Shown here: positions 22,925 through 39,196 of the stretch, in pieces
Numbering within the stretch: position 1 is the first letter of the stretch
Layout: each line of letters starts with the position of its first letter
Assembly (NCBI GenBank): GCA_046545815.1
Contig: JBKGZA010000002.1
Coordinates: 1-62,881, forward strand
From: Bacteroidales bacterium
Lineage (GTDB): Bacteria > Bacteroidota > Bacteroidia > Bacteroidales > UBA12077
Direction: 5' to 3'
DNA: 62,881 nucleotides
Program-made: the position numbers and the translations under genes
The notes under the pieces: model-generated
Database searches by the model: none
Told to the model about the DNA's origin: nothing
The model's input: only the letters and a program-made list of their open reading frames with translations

Positions 22925-24505
22925 CTACCGGGAAGTCTGCATTTTTCGCTGATTTTTCCCTTGCATATCCATTCGGTTTTCGAGGAGATTCAACATGTTG
23001 GTAGTAGCTTTAATGGCCGATTCGATCTGATCGGCATCCAGGCCACGGGTTTTAAATTCCTCACCCCTGTAATTCCAGGTAATAACCGTTTCAACAAGGG
23101 CATCCGTATTGCCGCCCGGAGGAATGGTGACCATATAATCAGTAAGTTTTGGGAATTCTTTTTCCAGTTTGCTGTATATTTTCTTCAGTGCCTTCATAAA
23201 CGCGTCATACTGACCATCACCTTCAGAAGTTTCCTGATACTGCTGATTGTCAATTTCCACATTAAGAGAAGCCACAGGCCTGAGCCCTTTGGTCAGAGAC
23301 AGGGTGTAGCCTACTACTTTGATCTTCTCATCGACCATATTGGTATTCAGCACATCAGAGACAATATAGGGAAGATCTTCTGAGCTGACATGTTCTTTCT
23401 TGTCGCCCAGTTCAATGACTCTTTGAGTTACCTTTTCCATTGATTCGGGATCCAGGGATATACCCCATTCTTCCAGATTCTTTTTAATATTGGCCTTACC
23501 GGAGGTCTTGCCAAGGGCATATTTTCGTTTTCTTCCGAAACGTTCCGGAAGGAGTGCGTTGAAATAAAGCTGACTTTTGCTGTCTCCGTCTGCATGGACC
23601 CCACAGGTCTGTGTAAACACATTCTCCCCTATCAATGGCTTATTGGAAGGAATCCGTATGGCAGAAAAACTTTCTACCAGTTTACTGACCGAGTACAACT
23701 GAGATTCTTCCACGTTGATCTCAAAATCCGTATGGTCCTTAATCATCCCTACCACACTGGATAATGGTGCATTGCCGGCACGCTCTCCCATACCATTGAC
23801 TGTGGTATGGACTCCCTTCATGCCTGCATATAATCCGGCATAGGAATTGGCAACCGAAAGGTCATAATCGTTATGGGCATGAAAATCAAAATGCAGATCG
23901 GGGTAGCGTTCAAACATTTCCGAGCAGTACTGATATACCTCCTCATGATCGAGTATTCCAAGTGTATCGGGCAACATGAAGCGTTTCACCGGCTCGTCTT
24001 TCAATTGATCCATATAATAAAACACATAATCTTTGGAACTCTTCATTCCATTTGACCAGTCTTCAAGATATACATTTACCTCCAGTCCCATATCTATGGC
24101 TCTGTGAATAAAGGTTCTAATATCTTCGATGTGTTCTTCCCTGCTTTTTCTAAGCTGGTGTTTCAGGTGGTTGATCGAGCCTTTGGTGAGCAGATTCACC
24201 ACCCTGGCTCCGGATTCCTCAATCCATTCGAGAGATTTCGTCCCATCCAAAAATCCAAGGACTTCAATCTGATTCAGACAACCATTTTTCCCTGCCCAAT
24301 CTATAATCTTCCGGGTAGCTTCAAACTCTCCTTTTGACACGCGTGCTGAAGCAATTTCTATCCTGTCAACATTAACGTCGGCCAGGAGTTTTCTTGCAAT
24401 ATTGAGTTTCTCCAGCTCACTGAAAGAAACTCCGGAGGTCTGTTCCCCGTCACGCAGGGTGGTATCCATGACCTCTATGTACCTATTATTGAATGGCTGT
24501 GACAT
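22925..24505 (-). CDS. cimA: (R)-citramalate synthase (LeuA/CimA family, with C-terminal LeuA-dimer regulatory domain)
   Basis: 526 aa with MDTTLRDGEQTSGVSF...NVDRIEIASARVSKGE...HAHNDYDLSVANS...FTQTCGVHADGD. By recollection this closely parallels the characterised Leptospira CimA rather than the GFP-motif LeuA type. It is the last gene of the ilv operon. Confidence 0.8.
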   Translation of the reverse strand: MSQPFNNRYIEVMDTTLRDGEQTSGVSFSELEKLNIARKLLADVNVDRIEIASARVSKGEFEATRKIIDWAGKNGCLNQIEVLGFLDGTKSLEWIEESGARVVNLLTKGSINHLKHQLRKSREEHIEDIRTFIHRAIDMGLEVNVYLEDWSNGMKSSKDYVFYYMDQLKDEPVKRFMLPDTLGILDHEEVYQYCSEMFERYPDLHFDFHAHNDYDLSVANSYAGLYAGMKGVHTTVNGMGERAGNAPLSSVVGMIKDHTDFEINVEESQLYSVSKLVESFSAIRIPSNKPLIGENVFTQTCGVHADGDSKSQLYFNALLPERFGRKRKYALGKTSGKANIKKNLEEWGISLDPESMEKVTQRVIELGDKKEHVSSEDLPYIVSDVLNTNMVDEKIKVVGYTLSLTKGLRPVASLNVEIDNQQYQETSEGDGQYDAFMKALKKIYSKLEKEFPKLTDYMVTIPPGGNTDALVETVITWNYRGEEFKTRGLDADQIESAIKATTNMLNLLENRMDMQGKNQRKMQTSR

Positions 24506-24650
24506 AATTCATCTTTTTATTTGATCCGGTATCGAAAAAATGATCCGGTTTCTCATTCCTGTTTAATTCTTTACACTGGCAAGCATGTGCTTCTATAACC
24601 CCAGCAAAAAAGAAATATGGGATCTCGACAAAAGAGATCCCATGAATTAG

Positions 24651-25697
24651 CTATTCTTCCGGTCTTAACTTACGCACCTGGCTTCCTGTTCTCCATAATT
24701 CTGATTCGTGAAGGGCTTTAAGCTCTTCCTGCAGTTTTTCCCTGTAATCGGGCTGACTGTTGATATCTATAGCACGTTGGGCTTCCTCTCCGCTGGCGAC
24801 TTTTCCATAAAGTTCATCAAATACCGGTTCCAATGCTTTCTGGAACCTGCCGTACCAGTCAAGTGCGCCCCGCTGAGCAGTAGTAGAACAATTGGCATAC
24901 ATCCAGTCCATACCATTTTCAGCTACCAGGGGCATCAGGCTCTGAGTGAGCTCTTCAACCGTTTCGTTAAAGGCTTCAGACGGGGAATGCCCGTTCTTTC
25001 GCAGCACATTAAATTGTGCCTGAAAAAGTCCTTGAATGGCGCCCATCAGGCTGCCTCTTTCTCCGGTAAGATCACTGAACACCTCCTTTTCGAAGGTGGT
25101 TTCGAAGAGATAGCCGCTACCTACCCCCATGCCCAGGGCTATTACCCTGTTCCAGGCATTGCCGGTAGCATCCTGGTGAATGGCATAACTGGAATTCACA
25201 CCCCGGCCTTGTTTAAATAAACGACGCAGGCTTGTACCCGAACCTTTCGGGGCTACCAGGATAACATCCACATTATCCGGTGGTATCACACCGCTGCGCT
25301 CTTTATAAGTTATTGAAAAACCATGAGAAAAATACAGGGCATCACCCGGGTTTAAGTTCCGTTTTACCTCATCCCAGATCATCATCTGGGCAGCATCTGA
25401 AACCAGATACTGAATAATGGTGCCCCTTTTAACAGCCTCCTCTACCGGAAACAAAGTTTTATCCGGCTCCCACCCGTCATTTAGGGCTTTATTCCAGTCA
25501 TCTTTAAATTCAGGAGCCTGCCCAACCACTACATTGATGCCATTGTCTTTCAGGTTCAATGCCTGAGCGGGTCCCTGAACGCCATAACCAATAACTGCTA
25601 CTGTTTCGTCCTTGAGTACTTCTGTTGCCTTTTTCAATGGAAACTCCTCTCTGGTCACCACATTTTCTTCTTCATCACCAAAACGTATTTTCGCCAT
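24651..25697 (-). CDS. ilvC: ketol-acid reductoisomerase (class I)
   Basis: 348 aa with GYGVQGPAQALNLKDNG and typical KARI knotted-domain sequence. Confidence 0.95.
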   Translation of the reverse strand: MAKIRFGDEEENVVTREEFPLKKATEVLKDETVAVIGYGVQGPAQALNLKDNGINVVVGQAPEFKDDWNKALNDGWEPDKTLFPVEEAVKRGTIIQYLVSDAAQMMIWDEVKRNLNPGDALYFSHGFSITYKERSGVIPPDNVDVILVAPKGSGTSLRRLFKQGRGVNSSYAIHQDATGNAWNRVIALGMGVGSGYLFETTFEKEVFSDLTGERGSLMGAIQGLFQAQFNVLRKNGHSPSEAFNETVEELTQSLMPLVAENGMDWMYANCSTTAQRGALDWYGRFQKALEPVFDELYGKVASGEEAQRAIDINSQPDYREKLQEELKALHESELWRTGSQVRKLRPEE

Positions 25698-25728
25698 AAC
25701 GTACTTTTTTTAGTTAATGCTTAGGATT

Positions 25729-26244
25729 CTACAATATATTGGCCAACTTGCCATCTGGCTTGATGAATGTTGATTTGACGGACCTTATATGCTGAATACT
25801 GGATAACTTTTCCATTTCCTCAAACATCTGGTTGATCTCCTCCCTGGAACCTGATTTCTCAAAATAAGTTTGGTCGGAATTGACCTTCATCAGCCGTACG
25901 TCATACTTCCTAATCAAGGCTTCTATGTCTGAAGATTCGAGCATCTCGTTAGTCGGGATCTGAAACAGGGTTGTTTCGTGTTGAGTTGTATTCTGCTCTT
26001 TTCTGGCGAAAGCATCAAATACCTCCACCTGTTTTTCTATTTGTTTGACTATCTTGTGCACCTGTTCTTCCGAGATTTTCAGAAGAATATTGAACCTGTG
26101 AATGCTTTCATACTCAGACCCGGATACCGTCAGGCTTTCGATGTTCAGTTTTCTGCGGGTAAAAATGTTGGCTATCCGGCTAAGCAGACCGGGATGATTC
26201 TCTGTGAAAACGGTGATTGTGTACAATTCTTTCTTGTCTTTCAT
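25729..26244 (-). CDS. ilvN: acetolactate synthase small (regulatory) subunit
   Basis: 171 aa with an N-terminal ACT domain (YTITVFTENHPGLLSRIANIFTRRKLNIESLTV), positioned directly after ilvB. Confidence 0.9.
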   Translation of the reverse strand: MKDKKELYTITVFTENHPGLLSRIANIFTRRKLNIESLTVSGSEYESIHRFNILLKISEEQVHKIVKQIEKQVEVFDAFARKEQNTTQHETTLFQIPTNEMLESSDIEALIRKYDVRLMKVNSDQTYFEKSGSREEINQMFEEMEKLSSIQHIRSVKSTFIKPDGKLANIL

Positions 26245-26270
26245 AACTTATTGCTTTTTAGTAATTATTA

Positions 26271-28025
26271 TTATTCAGATTCATTTTCTTCCGATGATTC
26301 CAGCATAATATCCGAAACGCTGGCACCAGGGGGTATCATGGGGAAAACATTATCTTCTTTCTCCACAACAACTTCAAGCAGATAAGGCCCCGGTGTTTCG
26401 AACATCTTGTTAATGGCGTCGGCCAGATCTTTACGTTCTACCACTCTGTTTGTGTTCAACCCGTAACCTTCGGCTATTTTATAATAGTTGGGGCTTGTCA
26501 TGGGTGTTGAAGAATAACGTTTGTTGAAAAACAACTGTTGCCATTGACGGACCATCCCCAGGTATGAATTATTCAGAATGATCATTTTCAGGGGAATGTT
26601 TGACTGAGTAATGGTGCCCAGCTCCTGAAGGGTCATTTGAAATCCTCCGTCACCGGATACTGCAACCACCTGCCGTTGGGTCGCACCGACCTGGGCTCCA
26701 ATAGCTGCAGGAACTCCAAATCCCATGGTTCCCAAACCTCCACTGGTTATAAGACTTCTGGTGCGGGTGAATTTAAAATACCGGGATGCAACCATCTGAT
26801 GTTGCCCAACATCGGTAACAAGTAACATATTCTCATCTCGTTCATTCAATTGAAGGATCACATCAGCCATCCGGACATGTTCCCGGTCTTCATCCTGTTG
26901 TCTCTTGATTATCTTTTGATGTTCTTGCTCATCGTATTTGCGGAATTTTTCGATCCATTCGGTAAAGGAATTTGGCTTAACCTCTTCGGTTAACAGTGGA
27001 AGGGTTTTCCTGACATTTCCTATGACCGGAACGTCAGCATTGACATTTTTATCGATTTCGGACTGATCGATGTCCATATGGATAACCCGGGCCTTTTCTC
27101 CATAGGTATTTAATTTTCCTGTAACCCGGTCATCAAAGCGCATGCCTATTCCAATAAGCAGATCCGCTTCATTGGTCAAGATATTGGGGCCATAATTGCC
27201 GTGCATGCCCAGCATACCCACATAATTGGGATAATCATTGGGAATTGCCGAAAGGCCAAGTAATGTAAATCCGGCAGGTATTCCGGTTTTATCAAGAAAA
27301 GCTTTCAGCTCTTCTTCAGCCTCACCGAGAATAACGCCGTGGCCTACCAAAGCCATAGGTTTTTGTGAATTATTGATCAGTTCAGCGGCTTTGGAGATCT
27401 GCTCCGGGTCAATTTCCGGCTCAGGTTTATAGCTGCGTATTTCCGCACATTTTTCATAGTGAAAATCCAGCTCTCCCGCCTGAGCATTCTTGGTCAGATC
27501 GAGGAGCACAGGGCCCGGCCTGCCTGACCTTGCAATGTAAAAAGCTTTGGCAATGGCACCTGGTATTTCTTCAGGTTTGGTAATCTGAAAATTCCATTTG
27601 GTCACGGGAGCGGATACTCCAATAATATCTACTTCCTGAAATCCATCTGTTCCCAGGAGCGCATCAGGCACCTGTCCTGTAATACACACCAATGGTACCG
27701 AGTCGATACTGGCATTGGAAATTCCGGTAACAAGGTTGGTAGCTCCGGGCCCGGAGGTAGCAAAGACCACTCCGGTTTCTCCTGTTGCCCTTGCATAACC
27801 GTCAGCAGCATGCACAGCTCCTTGCTCATGTCGCACGAGTAGATGATTGAGTTCTTTTTCATAATTCATCAGCGTATCGTAAACGGGTATAATCGACCCG
27901 CCCGGATAGCCGAAGACCTGATTCACGCCTTCTTCCAGCAGAGAGAGCACAAGGGCTTCCGAACCTTTTACTCTTTTTTTAACCGTTCCGCCGTGTGCCT
28001 GGGATCCTGATTTTGGTGCCTCCAT
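26271..28025 (-). CDS. ilvB: acetolactate synthase large subunit (biosynthetic, ThDP-dependent)
   Basis: 584 aa with the ThDP-binding motif GGLGTMGFGVPAAIGA...GDGGFQM...NN and an FAD-binding middle domain. Confidence 0.95.
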   Translation of the reverse strand: MEAPKSGSQAHGGTVKKRVKGSEALVLSLLEEGVNQVFGYPGGSIIPVYDTLMNYEKELNHLLVRHEQGAVHAADGYARATGETGVVFATSGPGATNLVTGISNASIDSVPLVCITGQVPDALLGTDGFQEVDIIGVSAPVTKWNFQITKPEEIPGAIAKAFYIARSGRPGPVLLDLTKNAQAGELDFHYEKCAEIRSYKPEPEIDPEQISKAAELINNSQKPMALVGHGVILGEAEEELKAFLDKTGIPAGFTLLGLSAIPNDYPNYVGMLGMHGNYGPNILTNEADLLIGIGMRFDDRVTGKLNTYGEKARVIHMDIDQSEIDKNVNADVPVIGNVRKTLPLLTEEVKPNSFTEWIEKFRKYDEQEHQKIIKRQQDEDREHVRMADVILQLNERDENMLLVTDVGQHQMVASRYFKFTRTRSLITSGGLGTMGFGVPAAIGAQVGATQRQVVAVSGDGGFQMTLQELGTITQSNIPLKMIILNNSYLGMVRQWQQLFFNKRYSSTPMTSPNYYKIAEGYGLNTNRVVERKDLADAINKMFETPGPYLLEVVVEKEDNVFPMIPPGASVSDIMLESSEENESE

Positions 28026-28038
28026 AAACTATTAAATT

Positions 28039-29889
28039 TTAAATGTTCCTTATTGCTCCTTTATCTGCGGAGCTTACCACTTTTGAATATATCTTAAGCG
28101 CTTTTGTAACTTTCCTTTCCCTATTTCTGGGAGTATAGGCTTCATACTGATACTTTTCTTCCTCCTGTTTGCGTTTCTGCAATTCATCCTCACCCAGCTT
28201 TGCCTGAATAAACCTGTTGGGGATATCAATCTCAATGGTATCCCCATCCCGGAGCAAAGCAATCTCCCCTCCTGCAGCAGCCTCAGGGGATACGTGACCT
28301 ATGGAAAGGCCGGAAGTACCTCCTGAAAACCTGCCATCGGTAATCAAAGCACAATCTTTATCCAGTTTTTTGGACTTAATATATGATGTAGGATACAACA
28401 TCTCCTGCATGCCGGGCCCGCCTGAAGGGCCTTCATATAGAATCAGCACCACATCTCCGGGTACAATGTCATCGTTCAATATTGCTTCACAAGCTTCATC
28501 CTGAGAATGATAAACCCTTGCCCGCCCTGTAAAACGGAGCACTGAAGGATCTACCCCTGCTGTTTTTACGATACAGCCGTTCCTGGCAATGTTTCCATAC
28601 AAAACAGCCAAACCTCCGTCTTGCTCATAGGCATGTTCAATATCCCGGATGCATCCATTTTCCCGGTCAACATCCAGTTGTTCATAAACAGCCTCCTGGC
28701 TTCCCAACTTAAGATTTCTGAAATTGCCTGGTGCAGACCGGTAGATCGAGTGGGCCGCCTCTGAGGGTTCAGCGTGTGTTATATCATAGTGATTTAATGT
28801 TTCCTCAAGCTTTGTGCCTTCTATCCTCAAAACATCAGTATTTAAAAGACCTCCCTTATTCATTTCGTTCATAATGCCCAGAACGCCCCCTGCCCTGTTT
28901 ACGTCCTCAATATGATATTTTGAACTGGGAGCCACCTTGGAAAGCACAGGAATGTTTCTGGACAAATTGTCAATATCTTTCATTGAAAATTCAACTTCCC
29001 CTTCTCTGGCGATGGCTAAAAGATGAAGCACCGTGTTGGTTGAGCCACCCATGGCAATATCAAGCGACATAGCATTCATAAAAGCTTCACGTGTTGCTAT
29101 GGAGCGGGGAAGAACTGTTGAATCACCCTGATGATAATATTTTTCAGCATTTTGTGCAACTAACCGGGCAGCACTTAATATAAGCTCTTTGCGATTGGCA
29201 TGGGTAGAGACAATTGATCCGTTTCCGGGAAGGGCCAACCCCAGGGCCTCGGCAAGGCAATTCATGCTGTTGGCCGTGAACATTCCGGAGCAGGAACCAC
29301 AAGTGGGGCAGGCATTACGTTCGGTCTGTAACAATTGCTGATCGCTGTAACTGGAGTCGGCACCCCTTACTATGGCATCGACCAGATCGAGCGATTCACC
29401 GTTACTTTTACCTGCTTCCATAGGCCCACCGGAAACATAAACAAAGGGAATGTTCAGCCGCATAGCTGCCATCAACATGCCCGGAACAATCTTATCGCAA
29501 TTTCCAATGGAAATCAAAGCATCTGCCTTATGGGCATTACACATATATTCTATACTATCTGCAATGATGTCCCTCGAGGGTAAGGAATAAAGCATCCCGT
29601 CATGGCCCATGGCAATACCATCGTCAATGGCAATGGTATTGAATTCGGCAGCAAAACATCCCTGTTTTTCAATCTCGGCTTTAACCATTTGTCCCGTTTC
29701 ATGAAGATGAACATGGCCGGGAACAAACTGGGAAAATGAATTGGCTATTGCAATGACAGGTTTTCCAAAATGCTCATCGCGCATTCCGTTCGCGCGCCAT
29801 AAACTCCTCGCACCTGTTCGTTGGCGTCCAACAGTTGTTTCTTCGCTTCGCAACCGAATCCTATTATTTGATCCTTTGTTTTCCTTCAT
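28039..29889 (-). CDS. ilvD: dihydroxy-acid dehydratase
   Basis: 616 aa of the IlvD/Edd family ([10 protein letters not shown]; [12 protein letters not shown]; [16 protein letters not shown]; ITDGRFSGG). Confidence 0.95.
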
Positions 29890-30031: not shown

Positions 30032-30413
30032 AGCCTTTTAAATTTTTATTTGCTTACAAAGCTAAAAGGTGTATGCGAATTGGTAAAATCAAAATACAGC
30101 GATAATACGATCTTTAATAGCCATCTGCTTTGGTTTATTATACTGGAAAGCAGTTGTTTATCCTTCTTATCAAACAGGTATTTTTACAATGGCAAGCGAA
30201 CAGAAAGTACTAAAATTCTTATCCATATTGCCTGACCAAATATAATATAAATACGAAAGTTGGAAAAGGAAGCCTTATCCCGGGACCAGATCCAATTGTC
30301 GGTCAGCCTATCCAAATCACCGGTCGTTGGGACGGAGAAGCTACAAGCCATACATCAATAAAGTTTTCATAGACACAAAGATAATTCCGTCCGATTGCCT
30401 TTCACTCATCCTT

Positions 30414-30816
30414 TTATATCCATGCAGGATTGGTGTTGGCTGCCTTCAGGGCTTGAGTGCCCGTTGTAATTACAGCAATTGTCAAAGCCAGCAAAGAAAA
30501 GATGGTAAAAATGTTTGCCGTACGTTGTTCGGCAGCATATAAACTCTCATAATCACTGTCCATAAAAAAACTGAAAGGTTGTTCCCCGGTAAACTGATCC
30601 CAGGCTTTTATCCAAATAATAAGCCCTGTCAATCACCAGCACCTTGTCCTTGTCGAAACCAAGCTTTTTTGCAGTCATATAATGATGCTGCTTATAAATA
30701 ACCACAGTGCTGATGAACAAGGCAATGGTTATCATAAACTGGGTTGTCACCAGAATTCCGCACAAACGATTCCCCGTACCCCCCTGTTTACTTCTTTTTT
30801 CATTATACTCACCGGA
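30414..30816 (-). pseudogene. decayed remnant of an FtsX/MacB-type ABC transporter permease gene
   Basis: Two frame-shifted fragments match conserved permease blocks: ..NRLCGILVTTQFMITIALFISTVVIYKQHHYMTAKKLGFDKDKVLVI.. and ..FSFFMDSDYESLYAAEQRTANIFTIFSLLALTIAVIT..ALKAANTNP... Most of a normal ~800-aa gene is missing, there are internal deletions, and there is no start. Confidence 0.7.
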
Positions 30817-31002
30817 CTAAAGGATGAAAGGAAAAAGGCCGGATAGGATCCAGCAGATATACCTAATTATCCTGTTTTTTTATTTAAGGCAATGTGTTAC
30901 CGTAACATTTAACCCGAATAATTCAAGAATTATTCCTGTCTCCGACAGCGACTAAGGTTCGCTAAAATTTTTTTCAAAAATTTAAGTTCACCTAAGTCGG
31001 GG

Positions 31003-31054: not shown

Positions 31055-31203
31055 ATGTTGTTGTATATATTCTTTGGATTTTGATTTTAAGAGGGGTGGG
31101 AACAAGTTGTGGATAAATCCCGAAGAAATGTTAATAACGAAAGATTTATCGCGGGAGTTTCTCCCAAAATATTTTGAGAAATTTGCAGGGAAATCCTGTC
31201 TTT

Positions 31204-34200
31204 ATGAAAGAATTCATTGCAGATCTTCATATCCACTCCCATCACTCGATGGCTACGAGCAAACAACTGCGTCCTGAATATCTGGATTACCGGGCGCGCA
31301 TTAAAGGCATTAAAGTTGTTGGCACAGGGGATTTCACCCACCCCTCCTGGCTGAAAGAGCTGAAAGAAAAGCTGGAACCTGCCGAACCCGGCTTATTCAA
31401 GCTCAGGGAAGAATACAAGATGGAAAACATAGTGCCTGAAACTCCGGAAAACAGCGTCCGTTTTATGCTTTCGGCGGAGATCAGCAACATTTACAAGAAA
31501 AACGGCCAGGTTCGTAAAATCCACAGTATGCTGCTTGCCCCCGACTTTGATACGGCAGAAAGAATACAGCAAAAACTGTCTTCGATGAATTTCAACATCA
31601 CCTCTGACGGACGTCCAATCCTGGGACTTGATGTACGGGACCTGTTGGAGATAACCCTCAATATAAATGAAAACAACTTCTTCATTCCTGCCCATATCTG
31701 GACGCCCTGGTTTTCCGTTTTCGGCTCCAAATCGGGCTTTGATACCATGGAGGAGTGTTTCGAAGACCTCAGCCAACACATCCATGTCGTGGAAACCGGC
31801 CTGTCAACCGATCCTCCCATGAACTGGATGTGCAGCTTTCTGGATCACTATACGCTCGTTTCCAATTCAGATGCGCATTCACCGGATAAGCTCGGCCGAA
31901 ATGCCAACCTTTTCAAAACAGAACCCGCCTATGAGGCCATGACCGATGCCCTGAAAACAGGTGATCCTGAAAAGTTCGGCGGAACCTTTGATATGTTCCC
32001 GCAGGAAGGGAAATATCACTATGATGGTCACCGTAAATGCGGAGTAAGGTGGTCACCGGTTGATACCTTAAAACACGGAGGAATATGTCCTGTGTGTGGC
32101 AAAAAGGTTACCGTAGGCGTAACCAACCGGGTGGTCAGGTTATCCGACCGCGAAGACATTCTTCAGCGCAAAAACCGGCTTCCCTACTATTCCATTATTC
32201 CCTTAAAAGAAATTCTTTCAGAGATTGAGGGCGTAGGAGAAAAATCCAAAAAGATCAGCAGGAAATATGAACAGCTCATCAGGAAGGCCGGAACCGAATT
32301 CAATATACTTCAATATCTGCCGGTTGAAGAGGTAAAAACCATTGGCGGGGAAGTACTTGCCGAAGGCATCCGCCGGATGCGAAACAACGAGGTGATCATA
32401 AAAGAAGGATTTGACGGTGAATACGGCCAAATCACCGTTTTTCAGCCGGACGAGATCAGGTTTCGGGGATCGCAGGAATCGCTGTTCGATAACTCCTCAA
32501 CCTTCAAGAACCCCGGCAAACGAAAGCTCATCAATTTCGACCTGGCCGAATACCGCAGGCTGGAAAAAATGGAGCACTTACCTGACCAGGCAGCAGAGGA
32601 AAAACAAGCATACCATACGCAAAAAGAGGGCCCTCTGAAAGGCCTAAATCCCGAACAAACCGAAGCAGCCACGCATGAGGAGGGTCCGGCTGCCGTTCTT
32701 GCAGGGCCGGGAACAGGGAAAACCCGTGTACTGACCCGCAGAATGGCCTGGTTGATCCAGGAAAAAAATATTGATCCTTCCCACATTCTTGCCATCACTT
32801 TCACCAATAAGGCTGCCGGTGAGATGCAGGAACGCTGTAAAAAACTCCTGATGGACAACCCTTCTGACTCAAAGCTGAATATTGCCACTTTCCATGCCTT
32901 TGGCTACAACTTCCTTAAAAAACATCACGTTTACCTGAAGCAGGACGAAAATTTCACCGTGATTGACGAAACCGACAAGAACGAACTTATCAGGAATCAT
33001 TTCAAGATCAGCGATCAGGAAGCCCGTAAGTATTCTGCCCGCTTCTCTGAAATCAAACAGTCTCCTCCCGAACAAAACACCAATCAAGGTGCGGACATCC
33101 TGCAGGCATCCCTGGATTATCAGAACCTCCTGGGCGAATACAATCTGTTCGACTTCGACGACCTGATATACCAGGTCGTTCATCTCACGAAAAACCACCC
33201 GGAGATCCGCGAAGAACTCAGACGACAATACCAGTGGATACTGGTGGATGAGTTCCAGGACATCAACCGGATGCAGTACCGGCTGATGCAAGTTCTGGCA
33301 GGGGACAAAAACCCCAACCTATTCGTGATCGGTGATCCCAATCAGGCCATTTATGGTTTCAGGGGTTCCAGCAAAAGGTTCATCAGTTGTTTCATCGAAG
33401 ACCATAAAGAAGCAAATATCTACAAGCTGCATACCAGCTACCGCTGCTCAAAAAACATACTGAAAGCATCTGGAAATGTGTTGCAGGAAGAAGGGCTCCA
33501 GGGACTGAGCGATGGTGTTAAAGTAAGGCTCGCACCGCAACAAACGGACAAGAGCGAGGCAGAGTATATTGCCCGAACGATTGAAGCCCTGAGCGGCGGG
33601 CTGCGTTTTTTCTCCATAGACAGCGATGTAACACAGGGAGAAGGTGATGAAGAAATCGAAAGCCTTTCGGATTTTGCCATCCTCTGCCGCACCAAACAAC
33701 AAATGCGTACCATTGAGAAAGCGCTCCAAGATCATACTATACCCTATCAGGCTGTAACGGGGGATGAATTCTTCAATCACCCCCTGGTGAAGGATGTCGC
33801 TTGCATACTCGAATATGCTGAAAATCCCGGCAACAGATATCTGGAAAGGAAGATAGCGAAGACGAAGCTTTCCGGACAAAAGCCCAACGGCCACCTTGAA
33901 AAGCTGCAACAGTTGGGATCAATAAAGAATAAAATACAATATGTCCACAATTCCCTCCTTGCTCAGAATTATGACAACAAAGCCGGTGAGATACTTCAAA
34001 GGATGATCGCATTGGGAGAGCAATACGGAAACAATCTTGGGGATTTCGTGAAATACCTCTCTTTGGGATCCTCCAATGATGCCTTTGCGCATCAGACCGA
34101 AAAAATTGCCTTGATGACCCTGCATGCCTCAAAAGGACTGGAATTCAAATGCGTGTTTATAGCCGGTTGTGAAGATGGCTTAATTCCTTATTCAATGTTT

Positions 34201-34431
34201 AAAAACCAGGAGACCGACCGGGAAGAAGAAAAACGCCTGCTCTATGTGGGAATGACCCGGGCTCAGTCCTATCTCTATATTACTCACGCCCGTAAACGTT
34301 TCATCATGGGACAGGAAAGAACCATGCAGCGGAGCCCCTTCCTGAACCGTATCGAAAAAGAGCTCACTGAGGTGGAAAAAAATACATACCAAAAGAAAAA
34401 GCAGGATGATTCGCAGTTGAAGCTATTTTGA
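31204..34431 (+). CDS. fusion protein: N-terminal EndoQ-like (TIGR00375-type) PHP-domain endonuclease + C-terminal UvrD/PcrA-type superfamily 1 DNA helicase
   Basis: N-terminal part: ADLHIHSHHS, PAHIWTPWFSVFGSKSGF, SNSDAHSP, EGKYHYDGHRKCG, and the zinc-finger-like CPVCGKKVTVGV. C-terminal part carries all SF1 motifs: AGPGTGKT (I), ILVDEFQD (II), GDPNQAIYGFRG (III), YRCSKNI (IV), LMTLHASKGLEF (V) and LYVGMTRA (VI). It is a single uninterrupted frame. I prefer the start at MKEFIADLHIHS (31204). Confidence 0.8.
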   Translation: MKEFIADLHIHSHHSMATSKQLRPEYLDYRARIKGIKVVGTGDFTHPSWLKELKEKLEPAEPGLFKLREEYKMENIVPETPENSVRFMLSAEISNIYKKNGQVRKIHSMLLAPDFDTAERIQQKLSSMNFNITSDGRPILGLDVRDLLEITLNINENNFFIPAHIWTPWFSVFGSKSGFDTMEECFEDLSQHIHVVETGLSTDPPMNWMCSFLDHYTLVSNSDAHSPDKLGRNANLFKTEPAYEAMTDALKTGDPEKFGGTFDMFPQEGKYHYDGHRKCGVRWSPVDTLKHGGICPVCGKKVTVGVTNRVVRLSDREDILQRKNRLPYYSIIPLKEILSEIEGVGEKSKKISRKYEQLIRKAGTEFNILQYLPVEEVKTIGGEVLAEGIRRMRNNEVIIKEGFDGEYGQITVFQPDEIRFRGSQESLFDNSSTFKNPGKRKLINFDLAEYRRLEKMEHLPDQAAEEKQAYHTQKEGPLKGLNPEQTEAATHEEGPAAVLAGPGTGKTRVLTRRMAWLIQEKNIDPSHILAITFTNKAAGEMQERCKKLLMDNPSDSKLNIATFHAFGYNFLKKHHVYLKQDENFTVIDETDKNELIRNHFKISDQEARKYSARFSEIKQSPPEQNTNQGADILQASLDYQNLLGEYNLFDFDDLIYQVVHLTKNHPEIREELRRQYQWILVDEFQDINRMQYRLMQVLAGDKNPNLFVIGDPNQAIYGFRGSSKRFISCFIEDHKEANIYKLHTSYRCSKNILKASGNVLQEEGLQGLSDGVKVRLAPQQTDKSEAEYIARTIEALSGGLRFFSIDSDVTQGEGDEEIESLSDFAILCRTKQQMRTIEKALQDHTIPYQAVTGDEFFNHPLVKDVACILEYAENPGNRYLERKIAKTKLSGQKPNGHLEKLQQLGSIKNKIQYVHNSLLAQNYDNKAGEILQRMIALGEQYGNNLGDFVKYLSLGSSNDAFAHQTEKIALMTLHASKGLEFKCVFIAGCEDGLIPYSMFKNQETDREEEKRLLYVGMTRAQSYLYITHARKRFIMGQERTMQRSPFLNRIEKELTEVEKNTYQKKKQDDSQLKLF

Positions 34432-34708: not shown

Positions 34709-35197
34709 ATGCAAAATCTAATTAACTTCAAACTTACCGAAGAAGAACAAATCGCCGTAGATAAGGCGTTTGGTACTATCAAACAGATTCTCGGACCCAA
34801 ACTGGTCAATTTGTCGCCTGGGGATATCCGAAATATGGTGAATATGGGCAACAAAAACATGAGCTTTGTAACCAAGGCCGCAGAGATTGCCAATAACAAC
34901 CCGCAACTGGTTCCAGACACCTTCGACCTGAAAGCTTTCCGGAACGATCTGGATGCCACGGTTACCCTTCGCGAGTTGAAACGGTCAACGGACAGCCTGT
35001 CCAACTTAATCAATGACTCTCTGGCGCTTTCAGGCAGCGAAGCCATTCAGGCAGCTTTTGCTTTCTATTCCTGGCTGAAAGTCGCTGTAAAAATGAACGT
35101 GCCGGATGCCGAAACAGCTTATCAGGAACTGGCCGAGCATTTTCCGGGCAAACGTCAAAAAAGTACAGATGGCGAAACCACGGAGGAGGCTACATGA
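34709..35197 (+). CDS. hypothetical protein, predicted all-helical, acidic C-terminal tail
   Basis: 162-aa ORF with good coding appearance, no signal peptide and no recognisable catalytic motif. It resembles a conserved Bacteroidota hypothetical family by recollection only. Confidence 0.6.
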   Translation: MQNLINFKLTEEEQIAVDKAFGTIKQILGPKLVNLSPGDIRNMVNMGNKNMSFVTKAAEIANNNPQLVPDTFDLKAFRNDLDATVTLRELKRSTDSLSNLINDSLALSGSEAIQAAFAFYSWLKVAVKMNVPDAETAYQELAEHFPGKRQKSTDGETTEEAT

Positions 35198-35343
35198 CAT
35201 CAGATGAGCCTTATCATTTTCGAGAGTCTGTATCTTCAGCGCGGGTAGAGACTCTTTGATTTATATCATGGTATTCCTGTTTTATAAACACTCCCCAGGC
35301 CTTGATATTTCCAACATAACCCCTCCTGTTTTAAACATTACAA

Positions 35344-35560
35344 TCGATATACCCGATATCAAAACATATATACAAGACATCTCCGGCCATACACTATCCC
35401 TCTAATGTGATATACGAAACATCCCACATGATATCTCAGATATCAAAGTCGATACTCCGGATATCATTTCTCATATTACAACATATCCCTGTTGATATAC
35501 AGAATATACTCCCGGATATACCAAACATCTTCTTTCATATCTGGCATAAAATTTCATCTC
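35344..35560. repeat. phased array of [G/C]ATAT(C) half-sites, ~10.5-bp spacing / 21-bp unit
   Basis: First half-sites are at 35409, 35430, 35451, 35472, 35494, 35515 and 35536 (intervals 21, 21, 21, 22, 21, 21). Partner half-sites lie 9-12 bp downstream of each. More copies occur at 35346, 35355, 35365, 35377 and 35388. Four are full GATATC palindromes (35355, 35430, 35439, 35460). Confidence 0.8.
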
Positions 35561-38542: not shown

Positions 38543-39196
38543 TTAATATAAAAGCTTACCTGCTTTAAGCACATCAATGATAGAAAGGAAGGTATTTTCA
38601 TTAACGATGTTCATTTCTTCGGGATTCAGCCATTTTGCTTCGGTAATCTCTTCTTGTGGCTGGGGTGTTAAGGCTTGCTTTTGAGTACTTTTCATAAGGT
38701 ACCAGTAAGTTTTTTTCAGTATCATCACTCCCTCCAGTGTATAGGAATGATAAGTGATATGTAATAAATCTTCCAATTCCGGTGCATCAATTCCACACTC
38801 TTCCTTTACCTCCCTTATTGCGCAGTTTTCCGGACACTCCTCCGCTTCTTTTTTGCCTTTGGGAAGATCCCATTTGCCACGTCTTTTGATTACAAGCACC
38901 TGTCCCTTCTCATTGAAAACCAGACCCCCGGCTGCCTCCAACACCCTGAAAAAGGACTGAAAATCATGAAAAGCCTTATCTACATCATGATGGGCAATAA
39001 ACACATTTTTTATCTCCTGGACATTCCTGAAAAGTTCAAGCACATAAGCAAGCTGAATCTCATTAAGATATCTGATAAAAAGCCCGTTATATCGTTCATA
39101 ATAGTCATCAAACTGATCTATAAAATAAATTGTGCGATTGTCGAAAAAAACTTTATACATTTGCCCTATGGAATATTTTGAAAAAGAAATAGCCAA
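38543..39196 (-). CDS. NUDIX hydrolase
   Basis: Nudix box GKWDLPKGKKEAEECPENCAIREVKEECG in the C-terminal half. Substrate unknown. Confidence 0.85.
   Translation of the reverse strand: MAISFSKYSIGQMYKVFFDNRTIYFIDQFDDYYERYNGLFIRYLNEIQLAYVLELFRNVQEIKNVFIAHHDVDKAFHDFQSFFRVLEAAGGLVFNEKGQVLVIKRRGKWDLPKGKKEAEECPENCAIREVKEECGIDAPELEDLLHITYHSYTLEGVMILKKTYWYLMKSTQKQALTPQPQEEITEAKWLNPEEMNIVNENTFLSIIDVLKAGKLLY

Follow-up and report, generated by a model that had tools for sequence, protein, structure and literature searches.

An EndoQ Module and an SF1A Helicase Are Encoded by a Single Gene

The window, the 62,881-nt stretch of Bacteroidales DNA analyzed here, carries on its + strand one uninterrupted ORF that ends at 34431 and has possible starts at 31174 (TTG) and 31204 (ATG). 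Because homologues open with M-[DK]-F-I-A-D-L-H, ATG 31204 was taken as the start. The features of the gene and its product are as follows:

31204..34431, + strand: long-form EndoQ–helicase CDS, complete; 1,075 aa plus TGA stop
31204..31998, + strand: PHP catalytic domain, aa 1–265; mapped onto PfuEndoQ
31999..32199, + strand: Zn-binding domain, aa 266–332, with knuckle H276-C279...C295-C298; aligned to the PfuEndoQ C4 site
32200..32463, + strand: C-terminal helical (DNA-binding) domain, aa 333–420; aligned to PfuEndoQ 304–386
32473..32487, + strand: internal QESLF, aa 424–428; tentative, conserved within a variable, disordered linker
32521..32562, + strand: conserved linker element RKLINFDLAEYRRL, aa 440–453; alignment of 63 sequences
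32635..34377, + strand: SF1A UvrD/PcrA/Rep-type helicase, aa 478–1058; Pfam, NCBIfam, and structure matches and alignment
34378..34428, + strand: Lys-rich, disordered tail with terminal QLKLF; conservation and pLDDT

Together with the domain matches described below, the uninterrupted ORF confirms the proposal of the first-pass annotation that an EndoQ-like PHP endonuclease and a complete UvrD/PcrA-type helicase are joined in a single polypeptide. The motifs that it had quoted, ADLHIHS, HIWTPWFS..GSKSGF, SDAHSP, KYHYDGHRKCG, and CPVCG, are all found in the translation and, in the HMM searches that it had suggested, the N-terminal half matches TIGR00375 and the helicase half both PF00580 and PF13361. 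The NCBI MAG Bacteroidota protein P0001 is near-identical (listed as 100%), with a few residues differing. The window contains no second copy of the EndoQ–helicase gene.

That the source is a metagenome-assembled genome would favor the view that the fusion arose artificially, through misassembly or a sequencing frameshift merging two neighboring genes. However, the same fused layout is found in independent genomes in 57 of 60 complete orthologous ORFs, including those on the closed chromosomes L068 and L069. More than 120 database proteins are of equal length, and conserved motifs lie within the linker itself. Because the fused layout recurs in independent assemblies and in these same-length proteins, the artefact reading is refuted, and we give it practically no credence.

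The N-Terminal Module Retains the Metal Ligands and Lesion Pocket of EndoQ

Residues 6–410 align with positions 2–374 of the 374 in the TIGR00375 profile (E = 7.8e-52), and residues 6–418 align with residues 5–386 of the 400 in P. furiosus EndoQ (PfuEndoQ; 5zb8/7k30; E ~ 1e-55). In addition, the N-terminal half of the predicted model superposes on 5zb8/7k30 with target-normalized TM values of 0.86–0.89. The score against TIGR00375, which is a "hypoth_equivalog" model, is 176.9 bits, below the NCBIfam curated cut-off of 326.6 bits. Judged from these alignments, the window protein is an EndoQ over the whole PHP, Zn-binding, and helical module, and the long form is a divergent EndoQ subfamily, not a strict TIGR00375 equivalog.

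The metal ligands of the module's two-metal PHP active site, H9, H11, E92, H107, H164, D223, and H225, correspond to H8, H10, E76, H84, H139, D193, and H195 of PfuEndoQ. Likewise, the lesion-pocket residues H164, G199, and S201 correspond to PfuEndoQ H139, G169, and S171, and W169 and R137 to W144 and R114. The roles of these PfuEndoQ residues have been described (PMC5961232, PMC8307549), and the U/Hx pocket formed by H139, G169, and S171 shuts out T and A (PMC8307549). As the first-pass annotation had supposed of an EndoQ, the metal ligands are intact. All mapped ligand and pocket positions are invariant among the aligned residues of 116 fused homologues, the count being 115/116 at three N-terminal positions, where one homologue is gapped. 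The first zinc-knuckle ligand is a histidine, H276, in 116/116 fused homologues, while the PfuEndoQ ligands are C249, C252, C268, and C271; the resulting H-C-C-C knuckle is plausibly still a zinc site, of a non-C4 type.

The same three-domain module, metal ligands, and U/Hx pocket are present in the archaeal EndoQs of P. furiosus and T. kodakarensis (5ZB8, 7K30) and in the short forms of B. pumilus and B. subtilis. The window protein differs from these proteins, with which it shares ~31% identity, in its H-C-C-C rather than C4 zinc site, in ~30 extra PHP residues, and in the ~650 aa of helicase and tail. The B. pumilus and B. subtilis short forms have the same nicking specificity as archaeal EndoQ (PMC5961232, PMC8438529), and the EndoQ module of the long form is likewise predicted to incise directly 5′ of dU, dI, dX, and AP sites.

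The Helicase Module Represents a Distinct UvrD/PcrA/Rep-Type Subfamily

The helicase module matches PF00580 (E = 4e-75; 253.3 bits against a gathering score of 23), PF13361 (E = 2e-46; 159.5 bits against 25.6), and the PcrA structure 1pjr (E = 7e-76). Its top matches are PcrA, UvrD, and Rep, at 27–30% identity, and its model reaches TM values of up to 0.77 against UvrD–DNA complexes. It shares with these enzymes the four-subdomain fold and the same seven motifs, which include motif I (GPGTGKT, 501–507), motif II (DEFQD, 682–686), motif III (GDPNQAIYGFRG, 710–721), and motif VI (VGMTR, 1015–1019). Indeed, the claim that all seven canonical SF1 motifs are intact is borne out by 63 aligned homologues, in which motifs I, Ia, II, III, IV, V, and VI are each invariant (columns G501–T507, T532–T534, D682/E683/Q685/D686, G710–G721, Y746/R747, H974–E980, and V1015–R1019). 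The module would presumably be an ATP-dependent 3′–5′ unwinding enzyme.

The NCBIfam equivalog cut-offs are missed by far, the scores being 392 vs. 911 bits for PcrA, 322 vs. 1,144 for UvrD, and 354 vs. 951 for Rep, and the helicase therefore constitutes a distinct subfamily. As both halves of the protein score below curated cut-offs, neither is a strict orthologue of a characterized enzyme. Compared with UvrD, PcrA, and Rep, the window helicase has a shorter 2B region, that of PcrA being the longer, and a family-specific GGLRFFSxDS insert (GGLRFFSIDS... at 798–824); its regulation may therefore differ from that of UvrD/PcrA. The C-terminal domain of PcrA is absent, and the RNAP/partner-binding domain found at the C terminus of PcrA and UvrD is replaced by the Lys-rich, putative clamp-binding tail. 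The AlphaFold model of the protein has a pTM of 0.64 and does not reliably give the docking of the two modules.

The Tail and Linker Carry Candidate β-Clamp–Binding Motifs

At the extreme C terminus of the protein is the sequence QLKLF (aa 1071–1075, nt 34414–34428), within a tail that is disordered by prediction (pLDDT <50) and evolves at an ω of ~0.01–0.1. Q1071 and F1075 are each conserved in 63/63 aligned sequences and L1074 in 61/63, the family consensus being Q-[LM]-x-L-F. A C-terminal clamp motif is found in nearly all of 120 close homologues, in most complete genome loci, and in 96–104 of 126 diverse representatives. The β-clamp–binding consensus is QL[S/D]LF or QxxLF (PMC12309361), and QLKLF is thus predicted to be a canonical β-sliding-clamp–binding motif. 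This tail had been overlooked by the first-pass annotation. Archaeal EndoQ binds PCNA via a C-terminal PIP box, which stimulates its activity (Shiraishi et al.). A terminal clamp motif is common to all these proteins, a PIP box in archaeal EndoQ and QxxLF in bacterial EndoQ, and the QLKLF tail would by analogy parallel the PCNA-tethering PIP box.

The linker that joins the modules measures ~57–60 aa (421–477) rather than the ~70 aa first estimated. Within a variable stretch of low pLDDT (<50), the internal QESLF retains F in 62, L in 57, and Q in 42 of 63 sequences, and 58 of 126 diverse representatives have a strict QxxLF at this site. Short-form bacterial EndoQs terminate in QxxLF near this position (PMC4858679, Suppl. 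Fig. S1); QESLF is a possible, tentatively assigned, second or relic β-clamp–binding motif. In the conserved linker element, F445, D446, L447, E449, Y450, and L453 are kept in 51–61 of the 63 sequences, and the model predicts a helix at 447–457.

The Long Form Is Widespread, Constrained, and Solitary

Homologues fall into 1,036 clusters at 50% identity with E ≤ 1e-30; among the 150 best representatives of clusters at this identity, nearly all are helicase-fused. A close relative is present in at least 380 species-representative genomes from ~10 phyla. Among 80 loci, three close relatives are stand-alone EndoQs, and neither these nor the Brevibacillus short form has an adjacent helicase gene, giving no Rosetta-stone support. 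The existence of stand-alone EndoQs in relatives and in Bacillales without a neighboring helicase indicates that EndoQ function does not require the helicase. Purifying selection acts on both halves and on the tail, with ω of ~0.04–0.10 where dS was measurable, the dN/dS analysis being limited to loci L001, L002, and L004 because dS is saturated for more distant relatives. Against the closest orthologue, dN is 0.057 for the EndoQ half and 0.236 for the helicase half.

Long proteins of this kind have been listed previously. Shiraishi et al. (2016) (Sci Rep 6:25532; PMC4858679, Suppl. Fig. S1) catalogued ~34 long (941–1,244 aa) "bacterial EndoQ homologs" with a C-terminal clamp motif, including those of Proteiniphilum acetatigenes (WP_019538689, 1,057 aa), Cloacimonetes (WP_029157127), Desulfobacter curvatus (WP_020586011), Geobacter metallireducens (WP_004512662), and Zymomonas mobilis (WP_011241259). 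The window protein shares their length class (~950–1,250 aa), N-terminal EndoQ module, and terminal QL[x]LF and shows no architectural difference from them; it is another member, from an uncultured Bacteroidota. The fusion is thus widespread and is not new as an entity, and the window gene is an ordinary orthologue in an already catalogued large bacterial family. As cited through PMC5961232, Shiraishi et al. (2017) set bacterial "families 2 and 3" by domain organization, and the long form is probably one of these. In the searchable literature, outside of which lie Shiraishi 2017 (BBB), Shi 2021 (PNAS), and Shiraishi & Iwai 2020 (JB), we found neither a description of the helicase domain nor an assay of the long form. 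Within that literature, the first-pass statement that the fusion has no characterized example appears still to be true. The outcome that the first-pass annotation had named as refuting its proposal, a ubiquitous and syntenic core gene with a described function, holds in part: several phyla carry the gene ubiquitously, but it lacks synteny across phyla and has not been functionally described.

The gene is flanked upstream by ilvD-ilvB-ilvN-ilvC-leuA and downstream by coaD-like, NUDIX, birA, rsfS, ftsH, cdsA, and psd genes. The setting had been described as one of gene remnants and repeats, but the flanks are ordinary housekeeping genes, and the upstream remnant is a decayed FtsX-type permease gene that is intact in close relatives. 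The close relatives have their EndoQ–helicase gene at the same housekeeping locus. When 668 flanking ORFs from 81 loci were clustered all against all, no conserved operon partner emerged, no family being present in more than seven loci, and the neighbor families that recur in up to seven reflect the synteny of close relatives. A solitary gene with no conserved neighbor in 81 loci is expected to have a self-contained function. A scan for σ70 promoters and terminators around the gene gave counts near shuffled expectation. In tblastn searches with the EndoQ half, 50,697 phage records contained no copy and 72,556 plasmids a single short-form copy. This copy lies on a Brevibacillus replicon of 733 kb, which is chromosome-like in that it carries spoIIM, fur, and xerD. 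On these counts, a mobile-element origin was rejected.

Discussion

We consider it probable that the long form is a chromosomal repair enzyme that is recruited by the clamp to an alternative excision repair of deaminated and abasic sites, in which it nicks 5′ of the lesion and then unwinds. The compact "nick-and-unwind" enzyme envisaged by the first-pass annotation fits all of our findings, and the conserved C-terminal β-clamp–binding motif strengthens this reading. In such a pathway, the EndoQ module would flip a deaminated base (uracil or hypoxanthine) or an AP site into its conserved pocket and cut the phosphodiester directly 5′ of the lesion, leaving a 3′-OH and a lesion-bearing 5′-phosphate. 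The 3′–5′ helicase would then most probably load on the intact strand at the nick and peel off the lesion-carrying 5′ end as a flap. The QLKLF tail, perhaps together with the internal QESLF, would tether the enzyme to the β sliding clamp, placing it at sites of replication or repair and passing the 3′-OH to a clamp-bound polymerase, and a 5′ nuclease and ligase would complete the repair. In this scheme we infer what the enzyme does and on which substrates, the polarity and loading strand of the helicase, the binding to the clamp, and the order of events. Related helicases start from nicks made by a partner nuclease in other processes: PcrA unwinds from the nick of RepD during rolling-circle replication, whereas UvrD starts at the nick made by MutH/MutL in mismatch repair and at that made by UvrC in NER. 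The published EndoQ pathway model already includes a helicase that removes the damaged segment.

Other combinations of an SF1A motor with a nuclease differ from this arrangement. The UvrD, PcrA, and Rep helicases work with a separate nuclease, whereas in the window protein the nicking partner is in cis. AddA, RecB, and AdnB (structure-match ranks 30–47) likewise join motor and nuclease in one polypeptide, but theirs is a C-terminal PD-(D/E)xK nuclease that acts at DNA ends within a multisubunit complex, while that of the window protein is an N-terminal PHP nickase, lesion-specific by prediction and encoded by a solitary gene.

The modules might also be coupled differently. The helicase could serve mainly as an ATP-driven translocase that makes no excision flap, either scanning ssDNA or duplex to deliver the nuclease near forks or stripping the tightly product-bound EndoQ module off the nick for turnover, as UvrD does for UvrC in NER. 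The clamp-binding tail suggests action at or behind forks, and archaeal EndoQ cleaves both ssDNA and dsDNA (PMC8307549) and is stimulated by PCNA. Moreover, constraint is far stronger on the EndoQ half than on the helicase half, so that the core function may lie in the nuclease, with the helicase as an accessory, and stand-alone EndoQs occur within the fused clade. However, the SF1 motifs related to unwinding are strictly conserved, the full 1A/1B/2A/2B architecture is kept, and cutting of ssDNA at forks would be hazardous; sequence does not separate translocation from unwinding. On balance, we regard this coupling as unlikely, though it is the stronger of the two functional alternatives.

Far less probable is that the protein is an anti-phage nuclease–helicase that degrades foreign DNA with noncanonical bases, such as that of uracil-DNA phages, as the first-pass annotation had also suggested. 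PADLOC does match the helicase half to GajB (E down to 2e-91) and to DRT-associated helicase models, but these matches are generic to the UvrD family, and the neighbors show no defence match beyond a generic one for NUDIX at a distance of 4 kb. Gabija GajB and other defence helicases have a UvrD-family domain in common with the window protein; GajA (an OLD-family nuclease) or another defence partner is absent from the window, and the gene has neither a defence-island context in 81 loci nor a mobile-element association. The lack of a conserved neighbor, the retention of the housekeeping locus in close relatives, and the absence of the gene from phages and essentially from plasmids likewise argue against defence. 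In addition, the conserved β-clamp tether points toward the host replication and repair machinery, and cutting once 5′ of a lesion belongs to the chemistry of repair rather than to that of destruction. Given the generic UvrD/GajB-type matches and the absence of a partner, the defence-system reading was rejected.

If the excision-repair reading is correct and the fused enzyme nicks at deaminated bases and then unwinds from its own nick on the β clamp, a single protein would provide the front end of alternative excision repair, and the steps that follow EndoQ incision would become directly testable in bacteria. More tentatively, and with somewhat less than even confidence, we suggest that the helicase-fused, clamp-tethered form is bacteria's main use of EndoQ, constituting a self-contained, glycosylase-independent "nick-and-unwind" pathway for deaminated bases at the sliding clamp. 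Its two QxxLF motifs may occupy both pockets of the clamp dimer, and the pathway may partly replace UDG/AP-endonuclease–initiated BER in many anaerobic lineages (Bacteroidota, Desulfobacterota, Spirochaetota, Cloacimonadota, Omnitrophota, and others). Were this so, it would overturn the textbook view, in which EndoQ is archaeal and occurs in "a few bacteria."

One ORF Joins an EndoQ Module to a UvrD/PcrA-Type Helicase

The EndoQ and helicase modules are encoded by one reading frame:

31204 (ATG) to 34431, + strand: fusion gene CDS, 1075 aa plus a TGA stop, one unbroken ORF.

The same ORF has an alternative upstream TTG start at 31174 (+), but because homologues begin M-[DK]-F-I-A-D-L-H, the ATG at 31204 is taken as the true start. 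All sequence motifs quoted in the first-pass annotation were found in this ORF, and its reading of an EndoQ-like nuclease and a UvrD/PcrA helicase in one chain is borne out by Pfam, NCBIfam and structure alignments. The NCBIfam model TIGR00375 matches aa 6-410 over its full length (profile 2-374 of 374, E=8e-52), with a score of 176.9 bits, under the curated cut-off of 326.6. Among sequences of solved structures, aa 6-418 align to residues 5-386 of the 400 in Pyrococcus furiosus EndoQ (PfuEndoQ; PDB 5ZB8/7K30; E~1e-55), and the C-terminal 616 aa align to PcrA, UvrD1, UvrD and Rep (E=1e-65 to 1e-76). Pfam places UvrD-helicase (PF00580) at aa 481-734 (E=4e-75) and also matches UvrD_C (PF13361, E=2e-46), while the protein falls far under the cut-offs of the NCBIfam PcrA, Rep and UvrD equivalog models. 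Database names for the homologues are automatic only ("UvrD-helicase domain-containing protein", "TIGR00375 family"), and the records annotate Pfam family PF27218 on all of them. One NCBI MAG protein is recorded as 100% identical to the window protein, yet a few of its residues disagree with the translation of the window, e.g., V172M in WFS[V/M]FGSKSGF.

Conservation of the Catalytic Modules

For the EndoQ module, PfuEndoQ numbering was rebuilt from the alignment, checked against every published residue and then mapped on 116 full-length homologues. The PfuEndoQ metal ligands H8, H10, E76, H84, H139, D193 and H195 correspond to window residues H9, H11, E92, H107, H164, D223 and H225. H139, G169 and S171 of PfuEndoQ, which form the pocket shutting out thymine and adenine (PMC8307549), correspond to H164, G199 and S201, and W144 and R114 to W169 and R137. 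The metal ligands, the pocket residues, W169 and R137 are all invariant in the 116 homologues. The zinc knuckle is H276-C279...C295-C298, with histidine replacing the first cysteine of the archaeal C4 site in 116/116. In the helicase module, motifs I, Ia, II, III, IV, V and VI are invariant across the 63 sequences of a full-length homologue alignment.

An AlphaFold2 model built on that 63-sequence alignment has a mean pLDDT of 79.7 and a pTM of 0.64. Its N-terminal half superimposes on PfuEndoQ with target-normalised TM scores of 0.86-0.89 and its C-terminal half on UvrD/PcrA/Rep-DNA complexes with TM scores up to 0.77; none of the structural matches to the model was a solved structure spanning both halves. 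Compared with PcrA, the fusion protein has a shorter 2B region and lacks the PcrA C-terminal domain. It also carries two family-specific elements without counterpart in EndoQ or PcrA/UvrD, one in the linker and one in the helicase:

32521-32562 (aa 440-453), + strand: conserved linker element RKLINFDLxEYRRL.
33595-33675 (aa 798-824), + strand: helicase insert GGLRFFSxDS..., with an invariant GG-LRFFSxDS start, partly low-confidence in the model.

Selection was estimated against the closest orthologues in which dS was measurable (those at loci L001, L002 and L004, compared with window 31204-34428), dS being saturated in more distant pairs. Omega is ~0.04-0.05 in the EndoQ half, 0.05-0.10 in the helicase half and 0.01-0.10 in the C-terminal tail, which is under purifying selection. 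Both halves have omega of 0.1 or less, and amino-acid change is about four times slower in the EndoQ half than in the helicase half (dN versus L001 of 0.057 and 0.236, respectively).

A Predicted Clamp-Binding Motif at the C Terminus

The fusion protein ends in ...KKKQDDSQLKLF, a tail that the first-pass annotation overlooked. Almost every one of the 120 closest homologues has a Lys-rich stretch followed by a terminal Q-[LMI]-x-[LM]-F; in the 63-sequence alignment Q1071 and F1075 are each present in 63/63 and L1074 in 61/63. The motif is likewise found in most complete ORFs of species-representative genomes, and of 126 diverse representatives at 50% identity, 96 have it by a strict definition and 104 by a relaxed one. 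The tail is predicted to be disordered, with pLDDT < 50. The bacterial beta-clamp-binding consensus is QL[S/D]LF or QxxLF (PMC12309361), and by its match to this consensus the C-terminal element is a predicted beta-clamp-binding motif.

Another motif of the QxxLF type is found directly after the EndoQ module, within the disordered linker:

32473-32487 (aa 424-428), + strand: QESLF.

It is conserved within the close clade (F in 62/63, L in 57/63 and Q in 42/63) but is less general, occurring at this position in 58 of the 126 diverse representatives. Its position coincides with the QxxLF end of short-form bacterial EndoQs. Tentatively, QESLF may be left over from a short-form ancestor and the fusion event, or it may offer the dimeric clamp a further point of contact.

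The Fusion Is Widespread in Bacteria

The EndoQ half alone was used as query against 1.84 billion cluster representatives in an exhaustive search, which gave 3702 proteins at E<=1e-3, of which 1036 reached E<=1e-30. Among the best 149 of these 1036 (all E<=1e-133), 126 are >=1000 aa; Walker A is present in most of the shorter ones, which resemble truncated fusions. With one genome taken per GTDB species, at least 380 genomes carry a relative, and the best 80 of these span Bacteroidota, Omnitrophota, Cloacimonadota, Calditrichota, Spirochaetota, Aminicenantes, Elusimicrobia, Planctomycetia, Desulfobacterota and one Clostridia MAG. Within these 80, 57 of the 60 loci with complete ORFs encode the fusion (1031-1256 aa). 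The remaining three encode a stand-alone EndoQ of about 418-476 aa, about 60% identical to the fused N termini:

L040, 7962-9392: stand-alone EndoQ gene.
L059, 7998-9263: stand-alone EndoQ gene.
L060, 16-1272: stand-alone EndoQ gene.

No helicase gene was found near any of the three. Their occurrence implies that the helicase half was lost within the fused clade or that fusion happened more than once. The possibility that the fusion is an artefact was considered and is refuted.

Genomic Context

The setting of the fusion gene is unremarkable:

22925-29889, - strand: leuA, ilvC, ilvN, ilvB and ilvD, a complete branched-chain amino-acid biosynthesis cluster directly upstream.
~30405-30866, - strand: decayed FtsX-type ABC permease, frame-shifted fragments in frames -2 and -3, in the 1.3-kb upstream gap.
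34709-35197, + strand: ORF of 162 aa, immediately downstream.
Further downstream: periplasmic-binding protein, coaD-like cytidylyltransferase, thioredoxin-like, NUDIX, phosphoribosyltransferase, birA, rsfS, ftsH, cdsA and psd.

The permease fragments match the C-terminal half of an ~800-aa FtsX-type ABC permease that is intact at the same position, in one to three tandem copies, in the closest-relative loci L001-L005. The decayed permease pseudogene explains the "gene remnants" among which the first-pass annotation had placed the fusion gene; a remnant is indeed present, but it is unconnected with the fusion gene. When 668 flanking ORFs from 81 loci were clustered, no neighbouring family occurred in more than 7 of the 81 loci. 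The 162-aa ORF, which has no Pfam or PADLOC match, is found in only 3/81 and thus is not a conserved partner. Between it and the periplasmic-binding-protein gene, an intergenic stretch at 35333-35468 holds three imperfect copies (68-100% identity) of the 31-nt A/T-rich repeat AAACATTACAATCGATATACCCGATATCAAA.

Mobile replicons were also searched with the EndoQ module. No match was found in 50,697 phage records, and 72,556 plasmids gave one short-form match, on a chromosome-like 733-kb Brevibacillus replicon:

L081, 4973-6720 (Brevibacillus laterosporus NZ_CP011075.1): region of a short-form EndoQ named "endonuclease Q family protein", separated by 2 bp from the preceding NUDIX hydrolase gene.

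This short-form EndoQ has no helicase neighbour, and together with the NUDIX gene it looks like an operon. In the window, a NUDIX gene (38543-39196, -) lies 4 kb downstream of the fusion gene on the opposite strand. The proximity of EndoQ and NUDIX genes could reflect a nucleotide-pool sanitation link or coincidence.

A Candidate Clamp-Recruited Excision Repair Enzyme

On the best-supported reading, the fusion protein is a chromosomal enzyme that the clamp recruits for alternative excision (nucleotide-incision) repair. Because the active site and pocket are completely conserved, the EndoQ module would be expected to make a nick on the 5' side of uracil, hypoxanthine or an AP site. UvrD starts at nicks made by its partners MutH/MutL and UvrC, and PcrA at the RepD nick. 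The helicase module is of this family and would be expected to translocate 3'-5' along the intact strand, lifting the 5' end that carries the lesion to form a flap. A polymerase for extension of the 3'-OH would be brought to the site by the clamp tether. We infer the chemistry, the polarity, clamp binding and the order of events in this pathway; a helicase step was already postulated in the original EndoQ pathway model.

The main rival to this reading keeps the repair role and differs in what the motor does: it would serve to find lesions or to release the product, not to excise. Further removed is the alternative raised in the first-pass annotation, a nuclease-helicase directed against foreign DNA. 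PADLOC does match the fusion protein, but only as a generic UvrD-type protein, and it identified no defence partner among the neighbours; together with the absence of copies from the phage records, this leaves the defence hypothesis with little support.

Relation to Known EndoQ Proteins

EndoQ was discovered in P. furiosus, where it incises 5' of dI, dU, dX and AP sites (PMC4357722), and its structure and catalytic residues have been determined (PMC5961232). Archaeal EndoQ has a C-terminal PIP box through which it binds PCNA, and PCNA stimulates it; in 2016 beta-clamp motifs were reported at the C termini of bacterial homologues (PMC4858679). Supplementary Figure S1 of that study contains bacterial proteins that carry the motif at their very C terminus, 10 of them short (405-464 aa) and ~34 long (941-1244 aa), the long ones including Proteiniphilum, Cloacimonetes, Desulfobacter, Geobacter metallireducens, Zymomonas mobilis, Rhodothermus marinus, Desulfovibrio vulgaris, Bilophila and Treponema. 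Among long-form proteins of cultured species are WP_019538689 (Proteiniphilum acetatigenes), WP_011241259 (Z. mobilis), WP_004512662 (G. metallireducens) and WP_012612878 (D. vulgaris). Thus, both the long form and its clamp motif had been documented before. According to a passage in the 2018 structure paper citing 2017 work, EndoQ comprises three families by "domain organization", of which families 2 and 3 are bacterial (PMC5961232). The literature searched neither names the helicase domain nor reports an assay of a long-form protein, and reviews still place EndoQ in "a few bacteria" (PMC8438529). The fusion gene is itself an ordinary orthologue of a widespread, already catalogued family, and its interest rests on two points: biochemical work on this long-form family appears never to have been done, and its members seem to be far commoner in bacteria than the literature states.
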